A DNA stretch of 64,000 bases, from assembly GCA_964413275.1 (NCBI GenBank), contig CAYPSO010000004.1, positions 2,520 to 66,519 of the forward strand. Direction: 5' to 3'. A program made the translations under genes and the position numbers. The notes below the pieces were generated by a model. That model searched no databases, had not been told where the DNA came from, and was given only the letters and a program-made list of their open reading frames with translations. This DNA is from an uncultured bacterium. GTDB lineage: Bacteria; Cyanobacteriota; Cyanobacteriia; Cyanobacteriales; JAABRE01. Shown in pieces: positions 4,808-58,926 of this stretch; the first letter of the stretch is position 1, and each line of letters begins with the position of its first letter.

Positions 4808-7800
4808 ATGAATAACTTGAATATTCGACAAATACTCCAAAAAAATATTCCCCTAATTATCTTAACTTTATTCGGATTTTTAGGGAATTTCTGGCATATC
4901 CCGATGTTTTTCGGGATTGATTTTCTTTTGGGTAGTATATTTGTCTTATTAATTGTTTATTATTATGGTTTTATTCCAGGTGTAATTGCTAGTATTATTG
5001 CTGCTAGTTATACTTATCAACTTTGGGGACATCCCTATGCAATTATTATTTTTACTTTAGAAACTGTATTTGTCGGTTGGCAATTACGTCGTGGTCAAGA
5101 TAATATTGTATTTTTATCAGCAATTTATTGGTTAATAATAGGTATTCCTTTAATATTATTATTTTATGGTTTAATTTTATCAGTACCTTGGTATGGTACT
5201 ATTTTAATAGTTTTTAAACAATCTGTTAATGGGATATTTAATGGTTTAGTCGCTAATTTAATTATAAATTATTTACCTTTAGATAAGATATTAGGTTACA
5301 AAAGTAATATTAAGCAACTATCTCTACAACAAACAATTTCTAATCTATTAATATCTTTTGTATTTTTGCCAGTTTTAATTATTACTATTTTAAACGGTCA
5401 ACAAATTATTAAAACCATTGAAAATCAGATAACTATTGAGTTAAATTCCGTTACTCAACCCATAGTAGCAAATACCAATTTTTGGTATGAACAACATTTT
5501 TATTCTGTAAGACAATTATCCCAAGTTGCCGCGCAAGCTGATGATATTTCGGTTTTACAAAATAATATAACTTTACTCAAAAACTCTTTACCTGATTTTC
5601 TACAAATGTGTGTTACTGATGTGGATGGTAACATAATTGCTGCTGAACCTAATCTTAAAGAAAAAGGGCAAACAATAATTGGTACTAATATCAGTAATAA
5701 ACTTGAATTTAAGCAAACTAAAGCTACTTTAACAGCTATTGCTACTGATGTTCATGTTGATGATAATTATCCTTTACCCCATGTAGGAATTATGCTTCCT
5801 ATTTTGGTTAATAATCAATTTCAAGGTATTGCCTATGGTTCTTTAAATATAGAACAAATCAAGAAAGTGTTAACTGAAAGTGTTAGAGAAGAATCATTAA
5901 AAATAACATTAATAGATAGAAATAATAAAATTATTACTACCACAGGCACAACTCTTAATAATATGGACGAATTTAAACCAAAACAAAATCGAGAAATTCG
6001 TCCTCTTAATTCTAATATATATCAATCTTTACCTAAAGCAAATGGCACACCTATTATGGTGCGTTGGCATGAATCATTTTATGTTAAAGAGATTGGATTT
6101 TCCTCAACTATTCCTTGGAAAATAATAGTAGAAATTCCGACCAATAGCTATATAGATTATATTCAAGAATTATATGTTAAAAGTTTAGCCTTAATGTTAT
6201 TAATTACGGTATTAGCATTATTTATCGCAATTATTTTAAGCAAAAAATTAGTAAAACCTTTATTAATTTTAACCAATTTGACTAATAATTTACCAGCAAA
6301 ATTAGCAGAAGATAATACTAGCATAGAATTACCTGATAGTACCATTCAAGAAATTGCGACATTAAGTTATAATTTTAAATTAATGGTAGAAGTTTTTAAA
6401 CAACAATTTCACGAAATTAAACAAGTTAATAACAACTTAGAAGATAACATTAATGAAAGAACTAACGCATTATTAAAATTAAATAATGAATTAAGGGTTG
6501 AAATTACAGAAAGAGAATATATTCAGAAACAATTAATAGAAAAAGAAGAAAGATATGATTTAGCAGTTTCTGGCACTAATGATGGAATCTGGGATTGGCA
6601 TTTAAAACTTAATACTGTTTATTATTCTCCTACTTGGATGAGAATTTTAGGTTATAAATATCAATCTTTACCTACTCTAATTTCTAGTTGGTTAAATAAT
6701 ATACATCCTGATGATTTAGAAAAAACACTTACAGATATTAACAATCATATTAAACGAAAAACACAATTGTACGAAAATATTCATCGTGTTAAACATCGAA
6801 ATGGCCATTATATTTGGATTTCTGCTAAAGGAAAATGTATTTACGATGAAGAAGATAAACCCTATCGTTTAGTGGGAACAATTACTGATATTACTGATAA
6901 AAAAATAGCTGAAGAACAACTTAAAAAAGCAAAAGAAGAAGCAGAAACAGCTAATCGTAGTAAAAGTGAATTTTTAGCAACTATGAGTCATGAAATTCGC
7001 ACTCCGATGAATGCAGTTATTGGTATGACGGGGTTACTTTTAGATACACATTTAGATAAACAACAACGAGAGTTTGTCGAAATTATTCGGAATAGTGGCG
7101 ATGCTTTACTGACCATTATTAACGATATTCTTGATTTTTCTAAAATTGAATCTGGCAAATTAGAACTAGAAGAACAACCTTTTAATCTTCGTACTTGTAT
7201 TGAAGAATCTTTAGATTTACTAGCGTCAAAAGCTAGTAGTAAAAACCTTGAATTAGCTTATTTCATGACTCCCAATACTCCAGAAATAGTTATGGGAGAT
7301 GTGACCAGGTTAAGACAAATTTTGGTTAATTTAATTAGTAATGCTGTTAAATTTACCGAAACCGGTGAAGTAGTAATTTCCGTTGACTCAACCATAATTA
7401 ATGATCGGAAAAATAATTTAACAACTTGTTCAATTCAATTTTCTGTGCGTGATACGGGTATTGGTATTCCTCCTCAACGTATGGATAGATTATTTAAACC
7501 CTTTAGTCAAGTTGATGCTTCGACAACTCGTAATTATGGTGGTACTGGTTTAGGTTTAGTTATTAGTCATAGATTAACCACAATGATGGGTGGTCAAATG
7601 TGGGTAGAAAGTGGCGGTTTTTATGGTGGTAATCCACCGGAAAAATGGAATTGTCAACGTTCAAAAGTTGGTTGTACTTTCTTTTTTAATATTATTAGTA
7701 GTCCTGTGTATTCTTCTTGTTTAGTAAATCAGTTTGAATCTAATAATGTATTAGAAGATAAACAAGTATTAATTGTTGATGATAATCAGACTAATCGTCA

Positions 7801-32324: not shown

Positions 32325-33998
32325 TTATTCCCATTCAATAGTGCCGGGGGGTTTAGAAGTAATATCATAAACTACCCGATTTACCCCTTTGACTTCATTA
32401 ACAATGCGATTAGAAATTATTTCTAGCAATTCATAGGGAACTTTTGCCCAATCGGCTGTCATACCATCTTCACTGGTAATAAACCTCAATACCACCGGGT
32501 GAGCATAAGTGCGTTTATCTCCCATAACTCCGACACTACGGATAGGTAATAAAACGGCAAAAGCTTGCCAATAGTCGTGATAAACTCCTTGTTTACTAAT
32601 TTCATCTCTGACAATGAAATCAGCATCTCTAAGGATATTTAGTCTTTCTGAGGTAACTTCTCCAATGATTCTAATGGCTAAACCGGGGCCAGGAAAAGGA
32701 TGACGACGGACGATTTCTTCTGGAAGTCCGATACTACGGCCAACATTTCTCACCTCATCTTTAAAAAGCTTACGCAAAGGTTCAACTAATTTAAAGCGTA
32801 GATTCTTGGGTAATCCACCCACATTATGATGGCTCTTAATTTTAACTGCAATCCTTTCCCCAGTTTTGGGATCGACGTTAGTATCCGCAGACTCAATGAC
32901 ATCAGGGTAGAGTGTACCTTGAGCTAGGTAATCAAAAGGGCCTAAACGGTTGGATTCTTCTTCAAAAACTTGAATAAATTCATGGCCAATACGACGACGT
33001 TTTTCTTCGGGATCTAATATTCCTTTAACTTGTTCTAAAAAACGTTCGCGAGCATTAATATATTGAACTGGTATATGAAATTTTTGATCGAATATATCCA
33101 CTAATCTTTCTGGCTCACCTTTGCGCATGAAACCTTGATCGATGAACATACAAGTAAGTTTATCTCCGATCGCTCTGTGAAGTAAAAAAGCTAGGGTAGA
33201 GGAGTCAACTCCACCAGATAGGGCAAGTAATACTCGTTTTTCACCTACTTTAGCTCTAATTTCCCTAATGGACTCTTCTACAAAGGCTTCCATTGTCCAA
33301 GTTGGTTCGCATTCGCAGATGTGATAGACAAAGTTACGAATTAAGGCAATACCACCTTGAGAATGAACGACTTCGGGATGAAATTGAACTCCAAAGATCT
33401 GTTTTTTGTGATCGGCGATGGCCGCACAAGGTGTATTATCTGTATGGGCTAGAACCACAAAACCTTCTGGTAATCGAGTACATGAGTCACCGTGACTCAT
33501 CCACATGGTTGAACCATCTTCTACATTGGTTAACAAATCAGTGGGATCGTCTATATTCAAAGAAGCTTTACCATATTCTCCACGTTTAGACCTTTCTACT
33601 CCTCCTCCTAACTGTTGAACCATTAACTGCATACCATAACAAACACCCAAAATCGGAATCCCTAGATGAAAAATCTCTGGATCGCATTGAGGTGCGCCTG
33701 GATCGTAAACTGAATTAGGACCACCTGAGAGTATAATCCCTTGGGGAGCTAATGTTCGTAATTGTTCTGCTGTAGTGCGATAGGATAACACTTCAGAATA
33801 TACTTGGGTTTCTCTAATTCTTCTAGCAATTAATTCAGAATATTGAGAGCCAAAATCAAGGATAACTAACATTTGACGGTCGGCATAAGCCCCCGAATCG
33901 AATTCGGGAGACACGCCCTCACGATTAATTTCATTTGTTAAGGTTTGATTTGGTTCTAATTCCTGAGGGGATAGGGGTTGAGTTGGTGTGTGTACCAT
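32325..33998 (-). CDS. guaA: GMP synthase (glutamine-hydrolysing)
   Basis: GATase domain ([29 protein letters not shown]), ATP-PPase P-loop SGGVDSS, and C-terminal PPGTIEWE. The N-terminal about 42 aa are unconserved, so the start could be the internal Met (MLVILDF). Confidence 0.95.
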
Positions 33999-48349: not shown

Positions 48350-49891
48350 TTAAGATAATTTGATCAGTAATCCCAAGATTTTTTTTGATGTGGGAGTTAA
48401 CAAAGTGCGACGATAAGCATCGGCTGCTTTTTTGATTGCGTCTGCTTGGGTTGGGTAAGAATGGATCACCCCAGATAAACCATTTAAACCGATTTTATTG
48501 ACCATAGCGGCGGTTATTTCTGAAATCATCTCTCCTGCATGGGATGCGACAATGGTTGCTCCTAAAATTTTATCTGAGCCTTTTTGGTGATGGATTTTCA
48601 CGAAACCTTCGGTTTCACCATCGGCGATTGCCCTATCAACGGTACTCATTAAAATTTTAATGGTTTCGTATTGAATATCTTGTTCTTGTAGTTGATGTTC
48701 GTATAGCCCGACATGGGCAATTTCTGGATCGGTATATGTTACCCAAGGTATAACTAAATCACTAAATTTAGATTTACCAAAACCGAAGGGAGAGAAAAGT
48801 GTATTTTTAATCACAATTCTAGCGGCTGAGTCAGCAGTGTGAGTAAATTTATAGGGTAAACAAATATCCCCTGCTGCAAAGATTTTAGGATTAGTGGTTT
48901 GGAGATAATCATTGATTTTTACACCGTAGCGATCGTATTCTACTCCTACAGTTTCTAAATTTAAACCTTCTATATTGGGAGTTCTTCCCGCACCGATTAA
49001 AATTTCTTCAACAATAATTGACTCTTGAATACCATTAGAAATATAGTCAATTTTTTTACCTCGATCTGTCTTTTCGACTTTCAATAATTGAGCGTTTAAA
49101 ACTAAGTTAATCTTTTCCTTTATAAAGGTATTTTGTAAAATTTCTGCTGCGTCAACATCTTCCTTATTTAAAATGCGATCGTGTTTATGAAATAGGGTAA
49201 CATTTGCTCCTAAACGATGGAAAGCTTGAGCTAATTCACAACCAATAGGCCCACCGCCAATAACCGCTAAACTTTTGGGTAATTCTGTTAAAGAGAAAAT
49301 AGTTTCATTGGTATGAAAACCAGCTTCTTCAATGCCTTCAATTTTTGGTTTAACTGCTCTTGCTCCTGTAGCAATAACGGCTTTTTTATAGGACAATTTT
49401 TGACCATTAACTTCGACAGAATTAGTACCCAAAAAACTAGCTTCTCCTAAAAAAACATCTATCCCTAAATTACGAAATCTTTCCGCAGAATCATGGTGAC
49501 TAATTCCTGCACGAATTTTACGCATTCTTGCCATTACTAGGGAAAAATTTATTTCAGTTTCTGTTACATTAATCCCTAATTCTTTAGCTTTTAAAATTTC
49601 TCCTATTACTTTAGCTGAGCGAATAATAGCTTTAGAAGGAACACAACCAAAATTTAAACAATCTCCTCCCATTAAATATTTTTCAACTAAAGCAATTTTT
49701 AGTCCTAAATTCAAACCTGCTGCACCGGCTGCCACAACTAAACCGGCTGTGCCAGCACCAATTACGACTAAATCATATTTATCTTTGGGGTTAGGATTAA
49801 CCCAGTCAGAAGGATGAACATAGGAGATTAATTTTTGATTATGTTCATCTAATGGCAAAAGATTTATGTTAGAAAAAGATTGGTGTGTCAT
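48350..49891 (-). CDS. Class I pyridine nucleotide-disulfide oxidoreductase (MerA-like/dihydrolipoamide-dehydrogenase-like)
   Basis: FAD motif VVIGAGTAG, the redox-active disulfide GGDCLNFGCVPSK, an NAD(P) motif, and a C-terminal dimerisation domain. There is no N-terminal HMA domain and no C-terminal Cys pair, so this is not a bona fide MerA. Confidence 0.75.
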   Translation of the reverse strand: MTHQSFSNINLLPLDEHNQKLISYVHPSDWVNPNPKDKYDLVVIGAGTAGLVVAAGAAGLNLGLKIALVEKYLMGGDCLNFGCVPSKAIIRSAKVIGEILKAKELGINVTETEINFSLVMARMRKIRAGISHHDSAERFRNLGIDVFLGEASFLGTNSVEVNGQKLSYKKAVIATGARAVKPKIEGIEEAGFHTNETIFSLTELPKSLAVIGGGPIGCELAQAFHRLGANVTLFHKHDRILNKEDVDAAEILQNTFIKEKINLVLNAQLLKVEKTDRGKKIDYISNGIQESIIVEEILIGAGRTPNIEGLNLETVGVEYDRYGVKINDYLQTTNPKIFAAGDICLPYKFTHTADSAARIVIKNTLFSPFGFGKSKFSDLVIPWVTYTDPEIAHVGLYEHQLQEQDIQYETIKILMSTVDRAIADGETEGFVKIHHQKGSDKILGATIVASHAGEMISEITAAMVNKIGLNGLSGVIHSYPTQADAIKKAADAYRRTLLTPTSKKILGLLIKLS

Positions 49892-49908: not shown

Positions 49909-50694
49909 TTATTCAATAGGTTCTAAAACTGCATTATTTAAGGCTTTTCTTGCTATTTTGGTGACATATAAAGTAACCGCTACTGTCGCAATAAAACCGA
50001 TAATTCTAATAGTCCATTGAGCAACAGGATTAGCGGTGGCTGTTTCCGTACCAATGGTGGCTAAATTACCAGCTAACGAACCAATATAAACATACATGAT
50101 TGTCCCCGGAATCATCCCCACTGAACCAATCACATAATCTTTGAGGGAAACTCCTGTCACACCATAGGCATAATTAAGTAAATTAAAGGGGAAAACAGGA
50201 GATAAGCGGGTTAAGAGAACTATTTTTAATCCTTCTTTACCAACTGCTTGATCTATCGCCCTAAATTTATCATTACCGGCAATTTGTTGCGCTACCCAAC
50301 CTCTTGCTATATATCTACCTACTAAAAAAGCACCTGTTGCTCCAAGAGTTGCGCCAATAAAGACAAAAATTGAACCAAATACTATTCCAAACACTACCCC
50401 TGCTCCTAAAGTGAGAATTGAACCGGGGAGAAAGGCTACAGTAGCGATAATATAAAGAAGGATAAAGGCTATAGCTCCCACCGCACCTAAATTATCAATC
50501 CATACTAAAGCATTGAGCAACCATTCTTGAGGATTAAACCCACTCCCAGCAGTTTCTTGGGCTAAAACTGGATTGGCCACTAAAACCATACTCATGGTAA
50601 AAGTCGAGAAAGCTAAAATAGTAAAACCCTGCCAAGATGGTAATTTTTTGGGGGTAAAATGATTTTTAATTTTCCGAAGATTAATTGAAAACAT
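49909..50694 (-). CDS. TVP38/TMEM64 (DedA-superfamily) membrane protein
   Basis: Polytopic protein with LTRLSPVFPFNLLNYAYG, characteristic of the family. It is a tandem paralog of the next gene. Confidence 0.75.
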   Translation of the reverse strand: MFSINLRKIKNHFTPKKLPSWQGFTILAFSTFTMSMVLVANPVLAQETAGSGFNPQEWLLNALVWIDNLGAVGAIAFILLYIIATVAFLPGSILTLGAGVVFGIVFGSIFVFIGATLGATGAFLVGRYIARGWVAQQIAGNDKFRAIDQAVGKEGLKIVLLTRLSPVFPFNLLNYAYGVTGVSLKDYVIGSVGMIPGTIMYVYIGSLAGNLATIGTETATANPVAQWTIRIIGFIATVAVTLYVTKIARKALNNAVLEPIE

Positions 50695-50699
50695 AAAAT

Positions 50700-51431
50700 T
50701 TAGTCTCCCTCAAGGGTATTTCTGAGCGTTTTTTTGGCAAAATTTGTGAAATAAATAGTTAAGCTAATGGTGGCAATTAATCCAATAATTCTCATTAACC
50801 AACGTAAAAGTTCGGTTTCTCTGGTAATTGGGGGTGACATATCAATGCTTACTAAATCAGTGGCTAAAGAGCCAAAATAAACGTACATGACTGTACCCGG
50901 AATCATCCCTAATGAACCTAATATATAATCCTTTAGGGAAATTTGACTAATACCGAAGAAATAGTTTAAAAGATTAAAGGGAAATAGAGGGGAAAGACGA
51001 GTTAAAAAGACGATTTTCCAGCCCTTTTGGGCGATAGCTCGATCTAGCTTTTTAAATTGATGGTATTTCAGCAATTGAGAATTAACCCAATCTTGACAAA
51101 AATAACGTCCTAATAAAAAAGCTGCTACTGCTCCTAAACTAGCAGCAATTAAAACAATAATACTTCCCCACCACAATCCGTATAAACAACCTCCTTTCAT
51201 GGTTAAAATTGAACCGGGGATTAAACATAAAGTTGCTATATTGTAAATACAAATAAAGAAAATGCAACCGATTATCCCCAGATTTTTAACTTCTGTTAAA
51301 GAACTTTGCCAGAATTGTTGTACATTAAAATTATGAAAAATCCAGAACCCAAGGGCGAATAAAACACCGCTCAAAATAAATTTGACAGCTTTTTTTTGAT
51401 TAGTGGTGAGATATTTGTTTCTTGGGATCAT
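50700..51431 (-). CDS. TVP38/TMEM64 (DedA-superfamily) membrane protein
   Basis: LTRLSPLFPFNLLNYFFG, with the same architecture as 49909-50694. The intergenic gap is 5 nt. Confidence 0.75.
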   Translation of the reverse strand: MIPRNKYLTTNQKKAVKFILSGVLFALGFWIFHNFNVQQFWQSSLTEVKNLGIIGCIFFICIYNIATLCLIPGSILTMKGGCLYGLWWGSIIVLIAASLGAVAAFLLGRYFCQDWVNSQLLKYHQFKKLDRAIAQKGWKIVFLTRLSPLFPFNLLNYFFGISQISLKDYILGSLGMIPGTVMYVYFGSLATDLVSIDMSPPITRETELLRWLMRIIGLIATISLTIYFTNFAKKTLRNTLEGD

Positions 51432-51457: not shown

Positions 51458-51985
51458 TTATTTAGGAAAATTACCAGCTAAATGAGAGAAAGTTACTTTA
51501 CCCATTTCCCCTGGCATTTCTCCATGAGTTTGGTTATCGGCATGATAAGCAACTACTAACATTTGATAGTTATTAGCGGATACAGTAATAGTTTTTGTCG
51601 CATTACCATTACTATCAGCACGGAAGAAATTATTTTGAACTCCTCCCGCAGGTCCCATGTCCATACCCACAATCTTTTTATTTACCCACCAAAAAGTATA
51701 AAGTCCATTGGGGACTAATCCTTGAGCTTTCACTGTAACTTGATAGTTGTTGGTACGAGGAATAGGAGTTGTCGAAATTTGAGCTTTGGCACTTAACCAT
51801 TTTTCTTTGGTAAAATTGCTAGGAAGACCATCTTGATCTGTTGCCATTAAGCCAGCTATATTTTGTGCGATAAGTTGTTGGCTTTGTTGTCTTACAGGCT
51901 TTAGCTTCAAAGTTTCAGCATTAACATAACTGACAGTTGCGGAAAGTAATAAAATAGTTGTACTACCCAAAAGTAAACGTTTCAT
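51458..51985 (-). CDS. Secreted protein of unknown function
   Basis: Signal peptide MKRLLLGSTTILLLSATVSYVNA with the predicted cleavage site before ET. I prefer the Met at 51985, preceded by AAGGA, over 52018. The mature part is beta-rich and has an HADNQTHG(E)MPGEMG segment. Confidence 0.5.
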   Translation of the reverse strand: MKRLLLGSTTILLLSATVSYVNAETLKLKPVRQQSQQLIAQNIAGLMATDQDGLPSNFTKEKWLSAKAQISTTPIPRTNNYQVTVKAQGLVPNGLYTFWWVNKKIVGMDMGPAGGVQNNFFRADSNGNATKTITVSANNYQMLVVAYHADNQTHGEMPGEMGKVTFSHLAGNFPK

Positions 51986-52066
51986 AGAATAATATCCTTG
52001 CTTAAATTGTAAATTCATAAAAGATACGATGCCGATGGGAAAATGGATTTAAAATTTATCCAAAAA

Positions 52067-52720
52067 TTATCTTTGAGTAAATTTCAAAATATCAAGAATT
52101 ATTTGAGGTTCAAGTCTATTCCTATAATCAGAATCCACAAAGCTATGAATAATTACTCCATCTTGAGCGACAATATAAGTAGCAGGAATTGGTAATTGAT
52201 AAGATTCATCTCCATTAGAAGCGGGGAGATTAATCCCAAAACTTTGATAAATGGGGCGTAATGGTTCTGCTACTGTAAAGGTTAAGCCAAATTCATGGGC
52301 TACTTTATTACCGACATCGCTTAAAACTTCAAAACTTAGCTCATTTTTTTCTACCGTTGATAGAGAATTATCAGGAGTTTGAGGAGAAATTGCCACTAAA
52401 GTTGCACCTGCTTGTTTGATTTCTGCTAAACGTAACTGTAAAGCTCGCAACTCTAAACTACAATAAGGACACCATCCACCCCGATAAAAGGAAATAACTA
52501 CCTTTGATGTTGTTAATAGATCTTGAATATTGACAAATTTTCCTGTGGCATTGGGCAAGGTAAAATTAGGTATTGTATCTCCTTGTTGGAGAGCATTTTC
52601 CACAATCTCGGAATTAATTAAATCAATAGCACTTTTTTCCATTAAATTTTTGACATCTTCAGATAACATTGATTGCATATTGATTGATACATTGGTTAAA
52701 TCTTCTTGTAAACTCATCAA
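52067..52720 (-). CDS. Peroxiredoxin-like thioredoxin-fold protein (AhpC/TSA, PRX_like2-type)
   Basis: FYRGGWCPYCSLELRAL (a CxxC embedded in the AhpC/TSA context). Confidence 0.7.
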   Translation of the reverse strand: MMSLQEDLTNVSINMQSMLSEDVKNLMEKSAIDLINSEIVENALQQGDTIPNFTLPNATGKFVNIQDLLTTSKVVISFYRGGWCPYCSLELRALQLRLAEIKQAGATLVAISPQTPDNSLSTVEKNELSFEVLSDVGNKVAHEFGLTFTVAEPLRPIYQSFGINLPASNGDESYQLPIPATYIVAQDGVIIHSFVDSDYRNRLEPQIILDILKFTQR

Positions 52721-52743: not shown

Positions 52744-53766
52744 CTAAAAAGAGCCAAAAAATCCGGGATAAACAAAGGCAAAAGCAGTGGAGCTAGGAAT
52801 AACTTTACCGTCTAATTCTTCCACAACCACTGTATTTAGCTCTTGCTCCCAACGGGCGCGAATTTGCCGAGAGCCAAAATTGACAATTTTCTCACCAACT
52901 TGTTTGATTTCTTCATGGGAAAATTGTTGACTGATACCAGAAAAGTGATTATGGGGGGTTTTTCCATCTGTTTCCCAGACATAACTAATAATTGCTTTAG
53001 GATGAAGTTTTCTTTCCTCTTGATGGCGTACCGGAAAAACAAGCTCCTCATTAGTGGTATAAGTACCGTAAGGATATTTAAAATAATCCCGCTCGTGACC
53101 AGTTTTTGTGGCTAAAATTTGACTATCAGGGTATTTTTTCAGCCAGTCTCTTAAGGTAGTTTTGACCGTAGCAACTCGCTCCAGAGAAACATTAACCTTT
53201 TTACCAACAACCCCTAATCCCCAAGGTTGAGAATATAAAGTATCATCGCGGCGATCGTACATTACTAAACAACTTTGGTAAAGTTTTCCTGATACTCCAT
53301 AGGTGCTATCACCTCTGTTAAAAGCCACAATCGTGTCACACAAAGGACAATAGGAAATAGTAAGATTAGTGCCTCCTACAGTATCATTAACAATTTCATG
53401 CCAATTCATAATCCCTAGTGGATAGGCTTTTGCTTCTCCATTAACTACTACACCGATAACTAATTCATCTTGATTAAAAGGGGTTGTTTTGCTAGTATCA
53501 AAAACAGGATTATCAATACTAGGAATACCGTCTTTAGGAGGCCCACCATTTAGAAGTTCGCTTAATTCAATCCGAGTATTTTTCGCTGGATCTAGGTTTT
53601 GTTTTCTTAAATCTGCTAACTCTTGAGTTTGATCTTTAAAATGCTGGGTTAGGGAAAAATGACGCAGTTTAAAATCATCAAAACTTTCTGCTTTTAAGAT
53701 TAATGTGCCTAAAGTTAATATGGCTAGTCCTACATTACTTAAGGCTATGATTATGTTTTTTTTCAT
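52744..53766 (-). CDS. DUF3179-family protein, exported or membrane-anchored
   Basis: N-terminal hydrophobic anchor, then KDGIPSIDNPVF, NGEAKAYPL..MNWHEIVND and YCPLCDT, as recalled for DUF3179. Confidence 0.6.
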   Translation of the reverse strand: MKKNIIIALSNVGLAILTLGTLILKAESFDDFKLRHFSLTQHFKDQTQELADLRKQNLDPAKNTRIELSELLNGGPPKDGIPSIDNPVFDTSKTTPFNQDELVIGVVVNGEAKAYPLGIMNWHEIVNDTVGGTNLTISYCPLCDTIVAFNRGDSTYGVSGKLYQSCLVMYDRRDDTLYSQPWGLGVVGKKVNVSLERVATVKTTLRDWLKKYPDSQILATKTGHERDYFKYPYGTYTTNEELVFPVRHQEERKLHPKAIISYVWETDGKTPHNHFSGISQQFSHEEIKQVGEKIVNFGSRQIRARWEQELNTVVVEELDGKVIPSSTAFAFVYPGFFGSF

Positions 53767-53821: not shown

Positions 53822-54220
53822 TTAATTATCAATAGTCCAAAGAGTATCTAAATCTCTAAGCAAATAAAGAGTAAAGCAAGCCGCTAACATGGGAAAAGCT
53901 GTAAAAAATAGCAGATTTTCAAAGGGTGCTAGGTATTGTTTTAATGAGGAAAAAGTAGAAACAGAATGAAAAAATAACACCAATAGATAAGTCCATTTTT
54001 TTTGAAAACCTGCTACAAATCCCAAGACAATTACTAATTGAATTGCCCCGATCAGATAAATTAAGCCATTATTTAAACCAGATATAAAATAGAAATTCTG
54101 GAAAATTTTGGCGGCATGATCTGGATTAATAAATTTGTCTAAAGTCCACATAATCATGACGATAAATACACTGAGACGAAGCAACAGTAAGGTCAGGGGT
54201 ATGCGCTGGTTTTGTTTCAT
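53822..54220 (-). CDS. Small four-TM membrane protein (DoxX-like)
   Basis: LLLLRLSVFIVMIMWTLDKFINP resembles the DoxX N-terminal helix. Weak assignment. Confidence 0.35.
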   Translation of the reverse strand: MKQNQRIPLTLLLLRLSVFIVMIMWTLDKFINPDHAAKIFQNFYFISGLNNGLIYLIGAIQLVIVLGFVAGFQKKWTYLLVLFFHSVSTFSSLKQYLAPFENLLFFTAFPMLAACFTLYLLRDLDTLWTIDN

Positions 54221-54265
54221 GTTAAGTTGGCTTGTATTCTTCTCTTTAAAGATACGAAGTCAATC

Positions 54266-55159
54266 TCAAAATGGATTTAAAACATTTGTAACTAGATTTT
54301 GATTGGCTATCCCTAATTCAATCAGAACAATCGCACCGACAATTATAAATAAGATACCCATACTACGCTCAAGTAATTTTTGTGACAATTTAGTTGCCAC
54401 AATTGAACCAAATTGCGCTCCAATTAAGACTCCGGGGGCGGTAAAAATAACTAGATTAAGAACGGTTGTTAATTCCTCATTTCCTGCTTGAATAAACTGT
54501 ATTACATGACCCACAGAGGCGGTTAAAGCGGTGATTGCAACAATAAAAACACTGGTTGCTACTGCTACTTGACTGGGAACTTTACACCGTTGAATTAAGA
54601 AAAAGCCATTTAATTCTCCTAAACCTGTGGATAGCATACCTAAAAATAATGCACCAATGCCAATGAGGAGACGACCTTCTGTATGGTTAGCAACGGTATA
54701 ACAAAAGCTTTGTCCATCTCTACTGGTAATACAGGTTTGAGGGTGATTGGTTTGATGGCTTTGGATGTCTCGATCTAATAATTTAATATCTCTAGTTTCG
54801 GGACTTCTCAAAAAACTATCAGCTATGACAAATAAACCAACTCCCAACATTGCTTTTAAGGCTTCGGGAGGAATTAATTTACCCAACCAAGTACCGAATA
54901 AAGCTACAGGAATGCTAACTATTAAGAGCATTTTTCCTAGTTGAAAATCGATTAATCCTTTACGAATATAGGCAAATAAACCACTGGAAAAACCAAAAAC
55001 TTCCGTAATTAAACCCGTACCAATTGCCACCTCTGTGGGTAATTTTAAAGCTAAGATAAACAACGGTGTAAAAAAAGTTGCTCCTTCCACTCCTGAAGCC
55101 ATAGCAATGGTAGCAATAACCATTGAAATAGGAAACATAAACCAATATTCAAAACTCAT
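54266..55159 (-). CDS. TauE/SafE-family anion (sulfite-type) exporter
   Basis: Two homologous 4-TM halves with G-rich helices (GVEGATFFTPL; GLGELNGFFL), separated by a roughly 50-aa cytoplasmic loop. Confidence 0.6.
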   Translation of the reverse strand: MSFEYWFMFPISMVIATIAMASGVEGATFFTPLFILALKLPTEVAIGTGLITEVFGFSSGLFAYIRKGLIDFQLGKMLLIVSIPVALFGTWLGKLIPPEALKAMLGVGLFVIADSFLRSPETRDIKLLDRDIQSHQTNHPQTCITSRDGQSFCYTVANHTEGRLLIGIGALFLGMLSTGLGELNGFFLIQRCKVPSQVAVATSVFIVAITALTASVGHVIQFIQAGNEELTTVLNLVIFTAPGVLIGAQFGSIVATKLSQKLLERSMGILFIIVGAIVLIELGIANQNLVTNVLNPF

Positions 55160-56197: not shown

Positions 56198-57160
56198 TTA
56201 ACAACAGCCGCCTCCCTGATAATGCCAGGTAGAATTAGTAATTAAAATTTCTGAAAATCTACTTAATTTAGCAGCAGTTTTATCACAAACAAAACTTGGA
56301 ATCCCTTTCCTTAAGATATGTCCAGCTTGGTCGTCAAAAAAATCTAAATTACCATGATAAATTGCCGTTTTTCCGGTAAAAATACAAGCTCCATCTTCGG
56401 GAATAGCTACTTTAAAAGAAACAGTGTCCAAACTTTCTAATAATAATGGTTCATCGAGTTGATAATTATGAATGTCTAACAAGCGATAAGGGCGACGAGT
56501 TCTAATTTCTACTTGTCCAAAACCATTATCAATTAAATGTTTGATATATTGCTCGTAGGTTAAAGCTCCAGATAAACACATAGCCCGTAACCGTTCATCT
56601 TTTTGTAAATGGGGGGGAATTGGACGAGTTGCGATAGGATCGCTCATTAATAAACGTCCGCCCGGTTTTAAGACTCGAAAAACTTCTTTTAAAGCCTTAT
56701 TTAAGTCTTCGGGTTCAAAAATATTAAATAAACAATTTTGGGCTACTAAATCTACAGATTCATCAACAACGGGTAAATTAAAAGCGTCACCATCCCTAAT
56801 ATCTACAAAATTTTCCTCAAACCAGTCATTTCCTATAGCTGCAACTTTGAGGTTTAAACGGGCTGCTTCTCGCATAGATGCTACGGGATCGACGGCTATT
56901 ACTCCACCTTGACGACGGGTAAAATAAGCAAATTGTAAAGCTTCTAAACCTCCTCCCACTCCTACATATAATATTTTAGGGTTATTCACTAATTCGTCGG
57001 GGTGAATAGTTGTACCGCAACCATAGTTCATATCCTGCATATTCGGAGGGATTTTGAGGCCGGGTAATTGTAAAGGACTACTCTGGACACAACATAAACC
57101 AATTTCTGGTATCTGAGCAACTTCACTATAAAATTGAGCGGTGGTTTCTAAATAAGTCAT
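56198..57160 (-). CDS. SAM-dependent methyltransferase with ArsM-like cysteine architecture
   Basis: SAM motif ILYVGVGGG and VLKPGGRLLMSD. Cysteines sit at ArsM-like positions (GLCC, NYGCGTT, AQNCLFN, AMCLSGA), and the C-terminus is an unusual GGGCC. Confidence 0.55.
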   Translation of the reverse strand: MTYLETTAQFYSEVAQIPEIGLCCVQSSPLQLPGLKIPPNMQDMNYGCGTTIHPDELVNNPKILYVGVGGGLEALQFAYFTRRQGGVIAVDPVASMREAARLNLKVAAIGNDWFEENFVDIRDGDAFNLPVVDESVDLVAQNCLFNIFEPEDLNKALKEVFRVLKPGGRLLMSDPIATRPIPPHLQKDERLRAMCLSGALTYEQYIKHLIDNGFGQVEIRTRRPYRLLDIHNYQLDEPLLLESLDTVSFKVAIPEDGACIFTGKTAIYHGNLDFFDDQAGHILRKGIPSFVCDKTAAKLSRFSEILITNSTWHYQGGGCC

Positions 57161-57323
57161 GTTAATCTGAACTAAATATTTTTCTTGTTTGTCAATTCTT
57201 TTATTAATACGAAACTGAAGGGTAAAAAGGATTTAATTAGTATTTTTTTGAGAAAATCAAATCCATTTTCAATTTAGGTTCGTATCCTTTTTATCTATGA
57301 TAGATTCTGAGGAAAAAAATTTA

Positions 57324-57566
57324 ATGAAAGTTCAACATCTAGCTAAACTGGTAATTGTATCTATCTTTGCTTTGGGGCTGACGGTAGCTTGTACTAATCC
57401 TTGTGGGGCAAAGACAAAAGATTCTGGTACGGGTACAAATACTAATCAAGTTGATCCTTGTGCTGGAAAAGATAACCCTTGTGCTGGAAAAGATAACCCT
57501 TGTGCTGGAAAAGATGACCCTTGTGCTGGAAAAGATGACCCTTGTGCTAGTAAAAATAACAATTAG
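57324..57566 (+). CDS. Small exported (possibly lipidated) protein made of Cys-containing heptad repeats
   Basis: Signal peptide MKVQHLAKLVIVSIFALGLTVAC (weak lipobox). The mature part is CTNPCGAK...VDPCAGK DNPCAGK DNPCAGK DDPCAGK DDPCASK NNN. GAGGA lies 10 nt upstream of the ATG at 57324, which I prefer over 57297. Confidence 0.65.
   Translation: MKVQHLAKLVIVSIFALGLTVACTNPCGAKTKDSGTGTNTNQVDPCAGKDNPCAGKDNPCAGKDDPCAGKDDPCASKNNN
57450..57554 (+). repeat. Five tandem 21-bp repeats (coding)
   Basis: Units gat-aac/gac-cct-tgt-gct-gga-aaa. Units 2 and 3 are identical, unit 4 differs from them by one base, and unit 5 differs from unit 4 only at gga->agt. Confidence 0.95.
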
Positions 57567-57630
57567 CCCAACAGTTAAATGTAGATTAAATCAAATTTTT
57601 GTTGCTATGATGCCAAGCTCTAGGTTATAA

Positions 57631-58188
57631 ATGATGCTTTCCAATCAGACAGATATAGAGGTATTTCAAGCTTTGCGTTCGGGTAATTTGGAAGCTTTAG
57701 GTGTCCTTTACCAACGCTATGGGGAGGTTGTTTACCGTGTCGCCTTAAAAATGTTAGCTAATCAGCAAGAAGCTGAAGATTTAACCCAAGAAGTGTTTCT
57801 TTATCTTCATCATGGTGGCAAATATGATGCCACACGGGGTTCGATGTTGGTTTTTCTTCTTACTTTAACTCGTTCTAAAGCTATAGATCGTCATCGTCAG
57901 ATTAAGGCTCAATGGCAACGGGTTCAACGTTGGTTTCATGGTTTTCCCACCAATGAAGGAGGTAGTTTAATGGATAAAATTGCTCTTAAAGAAATGTCTG
58001 ATTTAGTTAGGGGAGCAATTGCTCAATTACCAGAGTCTCATCAACAAGTTTTATCTATGGCTTATTTTGATGGTTTAAGTCAATCAGAAATTGCCTCTCA
58101 CTTAAATATGCCCCTTGGTACGGTAAAAACCTATAAAAGTAAAGGTTTATTGAAACTTAGAGAATTATTACAAGATTTAATTAAATAA
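57631..58188 (+). CDS. ECF (group IV) RNA polymerase sigma factor
   Basis: Region 2 (YRVALKMLANQQEAEDLTQEVFL) and the region 4 helix-turn-helix (LSQSEIASHLNMPLGTVKTYKSKGL). Followed 6 nt later by an anti-sigma gene. Confidence 0.9.
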   Translation: MMLSNQTDIEVFQALRSGNLEALGVLYQRYGEVVYRVALKMLANQQEAEDLTQEVFLYLHHGGKYDATRGSMLVFLLTLTRSKAIDRHRQIKAQWQRVQRWFHGFPTNEGGSLMDKIALKEMSDLVRGAIAQLPESHQQVLSMAYFDGLSQSEIASHLNMPLGTVKTYKSKGLLKLRELLQDLIK

Positions 58189-58194
58189 ATAATT

Positions 58195-58926
58195 ATGTCA
58201 GAAGAAATTAAAGAACTTTTAGCTAGTTATGTTTTAGGAGACTTGACTTCGGAAGAGGTAGCCAAAGTTAAAAAACTTTTGGCGACTAACCCTGAATTAA
58301 AAGAAGAAGTAGAAAGTTTAAAACAAATCTTGGCTCTTTTCCCCCTGAGCTTACCAGAAGTTGATTTACCTGAAGATTTGGGCGATCGCATTTTGCAAGC
58401 AGCTTCTGAGCATAGGAAAAATCTCTTATGGCTCAAAATTAAGAAAAAAAAACGCCCATTCACAATTTTAGTAGGAACTCTGGCTATGGGAGCGATCACC
58501 ATTCTTGGACTTTTCAACTATCGCCTTCAACAAAAACTTGCGACTACTCAAGAGAAACTTTCTGATTATGAGACAACTATTGCCATTTTACGTCAACCTA
58601 GTAATCGTTTGTTATCTTTACAAGGAACAGAATTAAGTCCTCGTGCTTCTGGCAGCTTGATGGTAAATCCTAATTCAGCCACCATAATATTGACCTTAGA
58701 AAATTTAACTACCCTATCTCAAGACAAGATTTATCGAATTTGGGGGATTCAAAACGAGCAAAAAATTTATTGTGGAGAATTTAACACAGATCCACAAGGT
58801 AAGGTTTTACTTCAACTTCCTTTAGATGCTGATATGTTGGATTCAGTAGGGGTAATTATTACGGTCGAACCCTTACAGAAATTTTCTGTTCCTAAAGGGG
58901 AAACAGTTATGATTGGAACTATTTAA
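58195..58926 (+). CDS. Anti-sigma factor with a single TM helix and an RskA-type extracytoplasmic C-terminal domain
   Basis: N-terminal anti-sigma helix pattern LLASYVLGDLTSEE...V..LL, TM helix FTILVGTLAMGAITILGLF, and the C-terminal YRIWGIQNEQKIYCGEFNTDPQGK...VIITVEP, typical of RskA domains. Confidence 0.75.
   Translation: MSEEIKELLASYVLGDLTSEEVAKVKKLLATNPELKEEVESLKQILALFPLSLPEVDLPEDLGDRILQAASEHRKNLLWLKIKKKKRPFTILVGTLAMGAITILGLFNYRLQQKLATTQEKLSDYETTIAILRQPSNRLLSLQGTELSPRASGSLMVNPNSATIILTLENLTTLSQDKIYRIWGIQNEQKIYCGEFNTDPQGKVLLQLPLDADMLDSVGVIITVEPLQKFSVPKGETVMIGTI

Follow-up and report, generated by a model that had tools for sequence, protein, structure and literature searches.

The DNA analysed here is a window of 64,000 nucleotides (nt) from an uncultured cyanobacterium (assembly GCA_964413275.1, contig CAYPSO010000004.1, positions 2,520 to 66,519 of the forward strand). 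It contains a small gene, hereafter the mini-gene, which encodes an exported protein made of short cysteine repeats and is followed on the same strand by the genes of an extracytoplasmic function (ECF) sigma factor and of an RskA-type anti-sigma factor. A 76.7-kb contig from a stromatolite metagenome matches the window, and the genes flanking this locus are cyanobacterial (e.g., petH with a CpcD domain, and prk). The original prediction, made from the letters of this DNA, saw in the mini-protein a possible thiol-based periplasmic sensor or buffer that could gate the anti-sigma factor. From the promoter motifs and gene contents described below, the mini-protein is most likely a member of the sigma regulon, encoded here by the promoter-proximal gene of the sigma operon, and less likely a sensor.

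The cysteine-repeat gene and its predicted sigma operon

The plus-strand features of the locus are the following:

57324..57566 (stop included), plus strand: mini-gene, precursor of a predicted cysteine-repeat lipoprotein of 80 amino acids (aa); open reading frame (ORF) list, homologues, L212/L213 orthologues
57324..57392, plus strand: signal peptide with lipobox LTVAC, residues 1-23; sequence, lipobox rule
57396..57413, plus strand: degenerate first unit NPCGAK; alignment of relatives
57450..57554, plus strand: five 21-bp tandem units encoding (V/D)(D/N)PCA(G/S)K; Tandem Repeats Finder, codon register
57567..57630, plus strand: gap of 64 nt between mini-gene and sigma gene, with no terminator-like site and no ECF motif
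57631..58188, plus strand: ECF sigma factor, 185 aa, no cysteine; Pfam Sigma70_r2/r4/ECF, NCBIfam PRK12519
58195..58926, plus strand: anti-sigma factor, 243 aa, with an N-terminal anti-sigma domain; Pfam PF10099 RskA_C, E 8.7e-18
58456-58515, plus strand: single transmembrane helix of the anti-sigma factor, residues ~88-107
58771-58773, plus strand: Cys193, the sole cysteine of the anti-sigma factor, in its periplasmic RskA domain

This layout agrees with the one first described: the 80-aa ORF at 57324 and its signal ending in LTVAC (sequence and lipobox rule), the seven cysteines and the five heptads at 57450-57554 (Tandem Repeats Finder and codon register), and the ECF sigma gene 64 nt downstream with an RskA-type anti-sigma gene behind it (Pfam and NCBIfam) were all recovered, as was a set of ten genes on the minus strand between 57160 and 48350.

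The full ORF spans 57297-57566, and its likeliest start is the ATG at 57324, which gives 80 aa. This start is preferred because homologues align from that methionine (MKVQHLAKL versus MKVKYLATL), because a GAGG sits 10 nt upstream, and because the predicted promoter ends at 57284, so that an ATG start at 57297 would have almost no leader. The signal has a basic K2 and an uncharged h-region, and its residues SIFALG LT V A C23 satisfy the PROSITE-type lipobox rule, written as the regular expression [LIVMFWSTAG]2-[LIVMFYSTAGCQ]-[AGS]-C. The mini-protein is thus predicted to be a bacterial lipoprotein with Cys23 as its lipidated N-terminus; a lipobox is also found in 22 of 32 cyanobacterial relatives, among them every stand-alone one. 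Cysteines occur at residues 23, 27, 46, 53, 60, 67 and 74, and since Cys23 would be lipidated, six thiols would stay free.

Tandem Repeats Finder reports a period of 21, 5.0 copies and 94% matches at 57456-57560, which in codon register (57450-57554) reads VDPCAGK, DNPCAGK, DNPCAGK, DDPCAGK and DDPCASK. The NPCGAK behind the lipobox is a sixth, degenerate unit, kept at that place in most stand-alone cyanobacterial relatives. The mature chain of 58 residues comprises 7 Cys, 8 Asp, 8 Asn, 7 Lys, 7 Gly, 6 Pro and no Met, with a single hydrophobic residue (1/58). An AlphaFold2 model from an 8-sequence alignment has a mean pLDDT of 46.9 and no secondary structure, as would be expected of a disordered chain. 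No Pfam or NCBIfam model matched the mini-protein when both libraries were scanned. As regards the array itself, a k=127 assembly crosses it, whereas two others, built independently from short reads of the same stromatolite project, are interrupted inside it (at window position 57519, where L007 and L009 start).

The sigma factor scores 230 bits against NCBIfam PRK12519 (cutoff 222) and has 3820 homologues at E<=1e-20. Together with its partner it shows the architecture of the ECF groups with RskA-type anti-sigma factors (ECF18/19/214/290-like), that is, sigma regions 2 and 4 and a single-transmembrane RskA_C protein encoded directly downstream.

A widespread family of exported cysteine repeats

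The mini-gene is a real gene of a widespread, previously undescribed family of exported PCA(G/A)K-repeat proteins, which we define by an N-terminal Sec or lipoprotein signal followed by at least three tandem P-C-A-(G/A)-K units; the mini-protein carries five such units in addition to NPCGAK. A protein search returned 11 relatives (P0001-P0011), with phmmer E values from 4.5e-32 to 1e-8 to cyanobacterial members. Eight of them are cyanobacterial mini-lipoproteins that share the N-terminus and carry 3-8 units of the form (N/D)PCA(G/A)K, and the repeat period among the relatives varies from 5 to 7 residues. Homology extends beyond the repeat into the signal peptide and the N-proximal NPC(G/A)AK region: the orthologues in L212 and L213, two loci linked to close orthologues of the sigma factor, share MKVQH..LGL.V.C.NPC.AK with the mini-protein. 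The small ORF thus turns out to encode a conserved exported protein, as had been supposed.

A profile search of 1.84 billion cluster representatives gave 185 matches at E<=1e-3 and 49 at E<=1e-10, and a degenerate DNA pattern for three consecutive units gave at least 120 genome loci. This pattern required a TGT codon in the first unit, so the counts that follow are samples from the matches listed and not a census; the ORFs in the fetched loci were called mechanically. The matches come from Cyanobacteria, Beta-, Gamma- and Alphaproteobacteria, Rokubacteria and Nitrospinota, and a signal peptide precedes the repeats in all of them (at least 120 loci). The units per protein range from 3 to 29, and the architectures found among the matches listed are:

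Cyanobacteria, stand-alone repeat proteins: 10
Cyanobacteria, fusions of repeats to thioredoxin (WCxxC): 13
Cyanobacteria, fusions of repeats to YHS domains: 6
Other phyla, stand-alone repeat proteins: 45
Other phyla, fusions to SoxA/TsdA-type cytochrome c (Pfam PF21342): 35
Other phyla, other long proteins, including alphaproteobacterial ones of 330-516 aa: 29

The proteobacterial SoxA/TsdA-type fusions carry the NPCAAK repeats at their N-terminus (e.g., L018, L024, L031-L034, L048, L057, L062 and L084). The alphaproteobacterial exported proteins of 330-516 aa (L020, L046, L071, L083, L108, L110, L116 and L126) are for the most part built of CNPCAAK-type units and reach 29 PCxx units per protein.

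The proline and the cysteine of each unit are invariant across phyla, and the spacer residues and the period vary. Moreover, the units of the L213 orthologue use different synonymous codons, whereas those of the window are almost identical in DNA. Selection therefore acts on the peptide, and the array of the window looks recently expanded. Full-text literature searches with the NPCAAK and PCAGK strings returned plasmid names only and, within the literature covered, no paper describing the repeat family, and the repeat has no model in either Pfam or NCBIfam. Naming and delimiting this module family is a first outcome of the present analysis.

A predicted promoter motif shared by the sigma factor and the repeat genes

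The ten genes on the minus strand, divergent from the mini-gene, are listed here in the order in which they would be transcribed:

56198-57160, minus strand: arsM, arsenosugar-type; NCBIfam AsSugarArsM, 568.6 bits
55164-56159, minus strand: arsS, radical SAM; TIGR04167 ArsS, 403 bits
54266-55159, minus strand: TauE/SafE permease; Pfam TauE
53822-54220, minus strand: DoxX-like membrane protein; Pfam
52744-53766, minus strand: exported DUF3179 protein; Pfam
52067-52720, minus strand: AhpC/TSA-type peroxiredoxin-like protein; Pfam
51458-52018, minus strand: exported protein of 186 aa; no Pfam or NCBIfam family
50700-51431 and 49909-50694, minus strand: two VTT/DedA-type membrane proteins; Pfam
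48350-49891, minus strand: pyridine-nucleotide disulphide oxidoreductase; Pfam

Bipartite words were searched for in the 300 nt upstream of the sigma orthologues, and ATCC-N16/17-CGT(A/C) was found in 25 of 35 loci, with typical instances reading cATCCaAT...agtCGTA/C at 91-235 nt before the sigma start. Since an ECF sigma factor as a rule transcribes the operon in which it is encoded, the motif is read as the probable promoter of this sigma factor. The window contains five matches to a strict form, AATCC-N14-16-TCGTM, where dinucleotide shuffles predict 0.41, and no shuffle out of 100 gave as many:

57260..57284, plus strand: copy 1, AATCCATTTTCAATTTAGGTTCGTA, predicted ECF-type promoter of the mini-gene/sigma/anti-sigma operon, 39 nt before ATG 57324
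57208..57233, minus strand: copy 2, AATCCTTTTTACCCTTCAGTTTCGTA, 47 nt before the arsM ATG
54253..54277, minus strand: copy 3, AATCCATTTTGAGATTGACTTCGTA, 32 nt before the DoxX-like gene, overlapping the last TauE codons
52025..52049, minus strand: copy 4, AATCCATTTTCCCATCGGCATCGTA, upstream of the gene for the 186-aa exported protein
33735-33760, plus strand: copy 5, antisense in a GMP-synthase-like ORF (32325-33998, minus strand)

Four of these copies lie upstream of locus genes and point toward them, three in intergenic positions and one over the end of TauE, and the 10-mer AATCCATTTT is common to three of the four. The copy at 33735, antisense inside an ORF, was treated as chance. Copy 4 ends only 6 nt before ATG 52018, and the real start of the 186-aa protein may therefore be ATG 51985 (MKRLLLG...).

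As the gap between mini-gene and sigma gene holds neither motif nor terminator, autoregulation of the sigma factor would run through the promoter of the mini-gene. With the motif placed 39 nt upstream of its ATG, the mini-gene very probably shares one transcript with both regulator genes, which agrees with the operon originally proposed. A scan for sigma-70 promoters gave fewer matches than shuffled sequence, none of them intergenic or pointing to the mini-gene, and the terminator scan gave none.

The same arrangement of motif and genes was found again in the closest sigma orthologues. A protein search revealed orthologues at 70-82% identity, and four of their loci were fetched (L212-L215). 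Both L212 (sigma identity 80%) and L213 (78%) encode an orthologue of the mini-protein with the N-terminus MKVQHFATLATMSILSLGLIVGCANPCAAK, and the number of C-terminal units is 2 in L212, 4 in L213 and 5 in the window, which bears out, between orthologues, the variable repeat number that had been anticipated. The gene order in these two loci is mini-gene, an oppositely oriented cupin gene, an NrtS-like gene, sigma and anti-sigma, with arsS and arsM just downstream and an operon for VTT, globin and disulphide-oxidoreductase proteins upstream. L214 (Coleofasciculus chthonoplastes, sigma 74%) has a repeat-thioredoxin fusion of 8 units together with CcdA, and L215 (Nostoc sp., sigma 70%) has a cupin gene and an orthologue of the DoxX-like gene of the window, divergent from sigma. 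The gene set of the window therefore recurs, rearranged, around this sigma factor. The NrtS-like gene encodes an NrtS-family membrane protein of 77-83 aa (NCBIfam NF038050, 103 bits; L212 4612-4845, plus strand; L213 4681-4914, plus strand; L162 838-1089, minus strand), which stands immediately upstream of sigma in some orthologous loci and is absent from the window.

Copies of the motif precede the mini-gene, the sigma gene, the VTT operon and arsM in L212, and the first three of these in L213, so that the VTT and Pyr_redox genes of both loci are preceded by it. They also precede the repeat-thioredoxin and sigma genes in L214, and the sigma gene and an operon for an ArsR-type regulator and an ABC system in L215, with 2-4 strict matches in each of the four loci against ~0.12 expected. 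Every repeat-thioredoxin gene near a sigma orthologue bears the motif (L079, L115, L128 with two such genes, L157, L159, L160 and L164). In another cyanobacterial subgroup the motif precedes methionine-repeat mini-lipoproteins, an exported MsrA and a TlpA-like/CcdA pair.

These positions suggest that the sigma factor probably controls the divergent operon, as first proposed, acting from the site 47 nt before arsM and from the two internal ones; the motif recurs upstream of the arsM, VTT and oxidoreductase genes of an orthologous locus. The regulon predicted for this sigma family is one of envelope sulfur chemistry, with Cys- and Met-repeat lipoproteins, thioredoxin/CcdA, MsrA, the peroxiredoxin-like protein and the disulphide oxidoreductase as its predicted members, joined by arsM and arsS in the lineage of the window. 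Motif and regulon are here proposed for a cyanobacterial ECF/RskA sigma family.

Sigma pairs and repeat genes in other genomes

How often both partners travel together bears directly on the role of the mini-protein. Homologues of the sigma/anti-sigma pair occur within 2-4 kb in only 3 of the 30 cyanobacterial repeat loci listed (L079, L115 and L128), all of them Nostocales-type with repeat-thioredoxin fusions, and none of the strong repeat-protein matches listed from other phyla has this sigma pair nearby. In the other direction, metagenomes scanned for the sigma factor yielded 38 loci with sigma factors 41-56% identical, and one further, weaker locus at 33%; an RskA-type anti-sigma gene follows sigma directly in 37 of the 38. 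The repeat gene is absent from the 22 closest of these sigma/anti-sigma loci (sigma 41-54% identical), whose upstream neighbours are a TlpA-like thioredoxin with CcdA, exported MsrA, DUF4394-like proteins, Met-repeat mini-lipoproteins (L141 and L143), or a cytochrome b561-type membrane protein beside a Tat-signal protein. In the Nostocales-type subgroup formed by L157, L159, L160 and L164, on the other hand, sigma, anti-sigma and cupin genes stand in a row, with repeat-thioredoxin and CcdA genes divergent from them. The expected co-occurrence of PCAGK heptads with ECF/RskA pairs therefore holds in part: it is found in L079, L115, L128, L157, L159, L160, L164 and L212-L214, but most repeat loci lack the pair and most sigma orthologues lack the repeat gene. 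As for the Met-repeat mini-lipoproteins, their repeats read GDAMKK and DSMKK, and their genes (L141 945-1163, minus strand; L143 3489-3794, minus strand) lie divergently upstream of the sigma orthologues.

Cys193 of the anti-sigma factor is kept in 15 of 34 relatives, and a universal redox sensor at this periplasmic cysteine was rejected on that count. The window has this cysteine, and so do all members of the Nostocales-type subgroup, for which Cys-repeat or thioredoxin lipoproteins are the predicted targets; its place is taken by Ser or Ala in the subgroup with Met-repeat or MsrA targets and by Thr in the DUF4394 subgroup. This co-variation with the type of target could equally be explained by shared ancestry.

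A role of the mini-protein as sensor or co-sensor, whose periplasmic thiols would capture the signal and engage the RskA domain so that sigma is released, can point to the predicted transcription unit common to the three genes and to the way in which Cys193 tracks the subgroup with Cys-repeat or thioredoxin lipoprotein targets. We nevertheless consider it unlikely, since the pair is so rarely found near the repeat genes, the 22 closest metagenomic sigma loci dispense with them, and in L212 and L213 the repeat gene is split from sigma by the cupin and NrtS-like genes and has a motif copy of its own; the cysteine co-variation, moreover, is confounded by phylogeny. Where both occur, the repeat gene bears the promoter motif of the sigma factor, which therefore makes it a probable target, that is, an output of the sigma factor. 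Some feedback of the peptide onto the anti-sigma factor may exist, given the co-variation of Cys193.

Neighbours of the repeat genes and the roles that they suggest

The most conserved neighbour of the cyanobacterial repeat genes is a divergently encoded, cytoplasmic cupin of ~203 aa, found by phmmer in 20 of the 30 loci listed. Its profile matches solved thiol dioxygenases, namely cysteine dioxygenase type I (6xb9, E 1.9e-15) and 3-mercaptopropionate dioxygenase (3uss/4tlf, 6.8e-15), as well as mercaptosuccinate dioxygenase, and the three His ligands are invariant. It was identified by phmmer or profile at these positions:

L001 5092-5709, minus strand: cupin
L003 5178-5786, minus strand: cupin
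L004 5289-5900, minus strand: cupin
L212 3898-4509, minus strand: cupin
L215 4165-4770, minus strand: cupin
L115 6512-7147, plus strand: cupin
14 further loci: cupin

Behind the cupin gene there usually stand genes for a histidine kinase and a response regulator; in other loci the sigma/anti-sigma pair comes before it. No cupin was found in the window by tblastn. The motif is absent from the repeat genes paired with the cupin/two-component module (0 in ~25 loci). As a rule, repeat genes would be regulated by a neighbouring signal system, either this module or the ECF pair. Of the 30 cyanobacterial loci listed, 10 contain CcdA/DsbD_TM genes, often with thioredoxin-like lipoproteins and a thioredoxin-reductase-like gene. 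In other phyla, the commonest neighbours among the matches listed are DUF6969 (33 loci), for which a full-text literature search gave nothing, YeeE/YedE sulfur-transport proteins, DUF302, multihaem cytochromes and DUF3179. ArsS homologues are encoded close to repeat proteins in L054 (divergent, 642 bp), L033 and L045, an ArsM-like and a DUF3179 gene flank the repeat-cytochrome gene of L060, and DUF3179 adjoins repeat proteins in L033, L036, L060 and L062; these six loci are proteobacterial. Genes arsM and arsS also adjoin the sigma and repeat genes in the window, L212 and L213.

Partners of this kind could suggest that the repeats are a specific carrier arm for As(III), sulfane sulfur or selenium, handing its load to partner enzymes or transporters, which would be the arsenosugar pathway here and SoxA/TsdA-like cytochromes, thioredoxins and YHS domains elsewhere. 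The SoxA family acts on a cysteine of the carrier protein SoxY, in fusions the repeats always come first, ahead of a periplasmic domain of redox or metal type (35 cytochrome c, 13 thioredoxin and 6 YHS among the matches listed), and in several phyla the repeat genes have ArsS, ArsM or DUF3179 genes beside them. However, ArsM and ArsS have no signal peptides and would act in the cytoplasm, whereas the repeats are periplasmic, and copy numbers of 3 to 29 fit a defined site less well than they fit a spacer or bulk storage, which leaves such a carrier, like the sensor, with a small share of the probability. A combination of both, in which a multi-thiol arm passes As(III), sulfane sulfur or selenium between envelope partners and, when loaded, reports through Cys193 to the anti-sigma factor, seems to us slightly less probable still; if true, a single molecule would be at once the buffer and the feedback signal of an ECF regulon that includes arsenosugar biosynthesis.

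Less credit is due to a third possibility, in which the repeats form a flexible spacer or tether, or a precursor to be modified (e.g., by the cupin), so that free thiols are not the functional point. The disordered, low-complexity chain and the prominence of a thiol-dioxygenase-family cupin at 20 of the loci listed speak for it, and bufferins show that enzymatic modification of Sec-exported Cys peptides is possible (PMC11626156). Against it, the cysteine and the proline before it are invariant in every unit across phyla while spacer residues and period vary, the cupin is missing from the window and no MNIO/DUF692 enzyme is encoded among the locus genes, and a stand-alone mature protein of 58 residues has nothing to tether; we regard it as improbable. 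Finally, that the ORF is no gene but an open frame arising by chance in a DNA tandem repeat is hardly credible. It is indeed short, of low complexity and without a curated family, but its orthologues keep the signal peptide with repeats encoded by other codons, the family spans several phyla with different codons and periods, and both a ribosome-binding site and a promoter motif are suitably spaced from its start.

Comparison with known systems

The closest parallels in outline are MrpX of Azospira suillum (SigF-NrsF, PMC4436054) and BcrX of Brucella melitensis (BcrS-AbcS, PMC8315932), Met-rich periplasmic peptides induced by an ECF pair and proposed as sacrificial sinks, in that hypochlorite oxidises them and repair follows (PMC4436054, PMC8315932). 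Like the mini-protein, they are small and exported, consist of repeats of a sulfur amino acid and adjoin an autoregulated ECF/anti-sigma pair, although here both the autoregulation and the control of the peptide are predicted: both peptides are directly ECF-activated, and the mini-gene has an export signal and a predicted ECF motif 39 nt before its start. Unlike them, the mini-protein has Cys and not Met, a predicted lipid anchor and an RskA-type instead of an NrsF-type anti-sigma partner; there is no MsrPQ partner in the window, arsenic and thiol-redox genes are predicted to be co-regulated, and there is no sequence homology. The Met-rich sequence and Msr partner typical of MrpX and BcrX are both lacking, as the mature chain has no Met and the locus no Msr gene. 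The Met-repeat mini-lipoproteins of L141 and L143, on the other hand, look like cyanobacterial counterparts of MrpX.

A second parallel is offered by the bufferins of Caulobacter (BufA, DUF2282 / BUF_6/12Cys), Sec-exported Cys peptides that buffer periplasmic copper under SigF-NrsF control (PMC11626156). Their cluster includes a DoxX protein, as the window locus includes a DoxX-like one. However, bufferins fold and need the MNIO (DUF692) and DUF2063 enzymes, which turn Cys into thiooxazoles, whereas none of the 13 locus genes matches MNIO (DUF692) or DUF2063 in Pfam or NCBIfam; they also differ in repeat architecture, lipobox and sigma family. The mini-protein is therefore outside the MrpX and bufferin families and resembles them in outline only. 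By analogy, it is predicted to be an ECF-controlled expendable periplasmic peptide built on an undescribed Cys-repeat module, with a much wider distribution and several fusions. This would extend the idea of expendable periplasmic peptides, as known from MrpX and bufferins, from methionine and modified cysteine to plain cysteine.

Bacterial metallothioneins of the SmtA/BmtA type are also short and Cys-rich and bind soft metals, but they are cytoplasmic, fold round a metal cluster and use His ligands as well. They have no signal peptide and no regular heptad, whereas the mini-protein is exported, with a predicted lipid anchor and a chain predicted to be disordered.

Regarding the sigma pair, SigK/RskA of Mycobacterium tuberculosis (ECF19) and the cyanobacterial sigG-sapG have, as in the window, an ECF gene followed directly by that of a single-pass RskA_C anti-sigma factor, and the window pair fits the architectural definition of the ECF groups with RskA-like anti-sigma factors (PMC7826278). 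A small, local and autoregulated regulon is a further point of resemblance, in the window a predicted one (PMC4105308, PMC7826278, PMC2758279). An identification of the sigma factor as SigK was rejected, since the NCBIfam SigK model gives 104.9 against a cutoff of 226 and the protein has no cysteine for the SigK disulphide switch, in which a conserved pair of sigma cysteines forms a disulphide (PMC7826278). The window pair may correspond to the conserved cyanobacterial sigG-sapG pair, for which a 2009 review stated that the SigG regulon and the sigG-sapG targets were unknown (PMC2758279).

A proposed thiol sink as output of the sigma factor

Altogether, the reading that we favour, at slightly better than an even chance, is that the mini-protein is an output of the sigma factor which acts as a periplasmic thiol sink. 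On the periplasmic side of the membrane, the lipoprotein would present a charged and disordered chain that bears six free thiols, and it would be made from an autoregulated operon with the mini-gene in first place, followed by the ECF sigma and RskA-type anti-sigma genes. When the anti-sigma factor releases sigma, transcription would start from the four sites sharing AATCC-N14-16-TCGTA, which would drive the mini-gene, the arsM-arsS-tauE genes, the doxX-DUF3179-peroxiredoxin genes, and the unit for the 186-aa protein, the two VTT proteins and the disulphide oxidoreductase. The abundant and expendable sink would then bind thiol-reactive metalloids or soft metals, or be oxidised in place of envelope proteins, and the remainder of the regulon would detoxify or repair. 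This sink function is drawn by analogy with the expendable peptides described above. Among its possible ligands, we infer that As(III) is the best contextual candidate, because arsenic genes appear co-regulated and ArsS, ArsM and DUF3179 recur beside repeat proteins elsewhere; copper, mercury, cadmium and oxidants are candidates too. Thioredoxin fusions and CcdA neighbours would fit either role, metal binding or oxidation, because periplasmic thiols must be kept reduced. The arsenosugar genes arsM and arsS are predicted to stand under an envelope-stress sigma factor, which, if true, would link metalloid metabolism to periplasmic thiol homeostasis.

Several points weigh against this reading. 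The window encodes no CcdA/TlpA-type reductant supply and no Msr partner to recycle an oxidised sink, and its redox partners are only the peroxiredoxin-like protein and the disulphide oxidoreductase. Only a minority of the family members are associated with arsenic genes, whereas most adjoin unrelated partners, such as a two-component system together with the thiol-dioxygenase-like cupin, or a cytochrome together with DUF6969, and metal, metalloid and oxidant ligands are indistinguishable from sequence. The promoter motif, moreover, is lacking in 10 of the 35 sigma-orthologue loci in the region scanned, and its assignment to this sigma factor rests on the autoregulation usual in ECF systems.

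Two further observations concern the surroundings of these genes. In the window, Rfam gave a match to rliB, a Listeria small RNA, at 58168-58286 on the minus strand, which is sub-threshold (26.8 bits against a gathering score of 40), lies inside coding sequence and was rejected as chance. In the non-cyanobacterial locus L011 (GCA_973363985.1), a 74-aa NPCAAK-repeat protein is encoded at 6001-6225 and adjoins MauE-like, DsbD_TM, thioredoxin and CMD/AhpD-like genes, CzcCBA efflux genes and an NrsF-type anti-sigma/ECF sigma pair, which is a second, independent link of the repeat family to ECF-controlled metal/redox islands.

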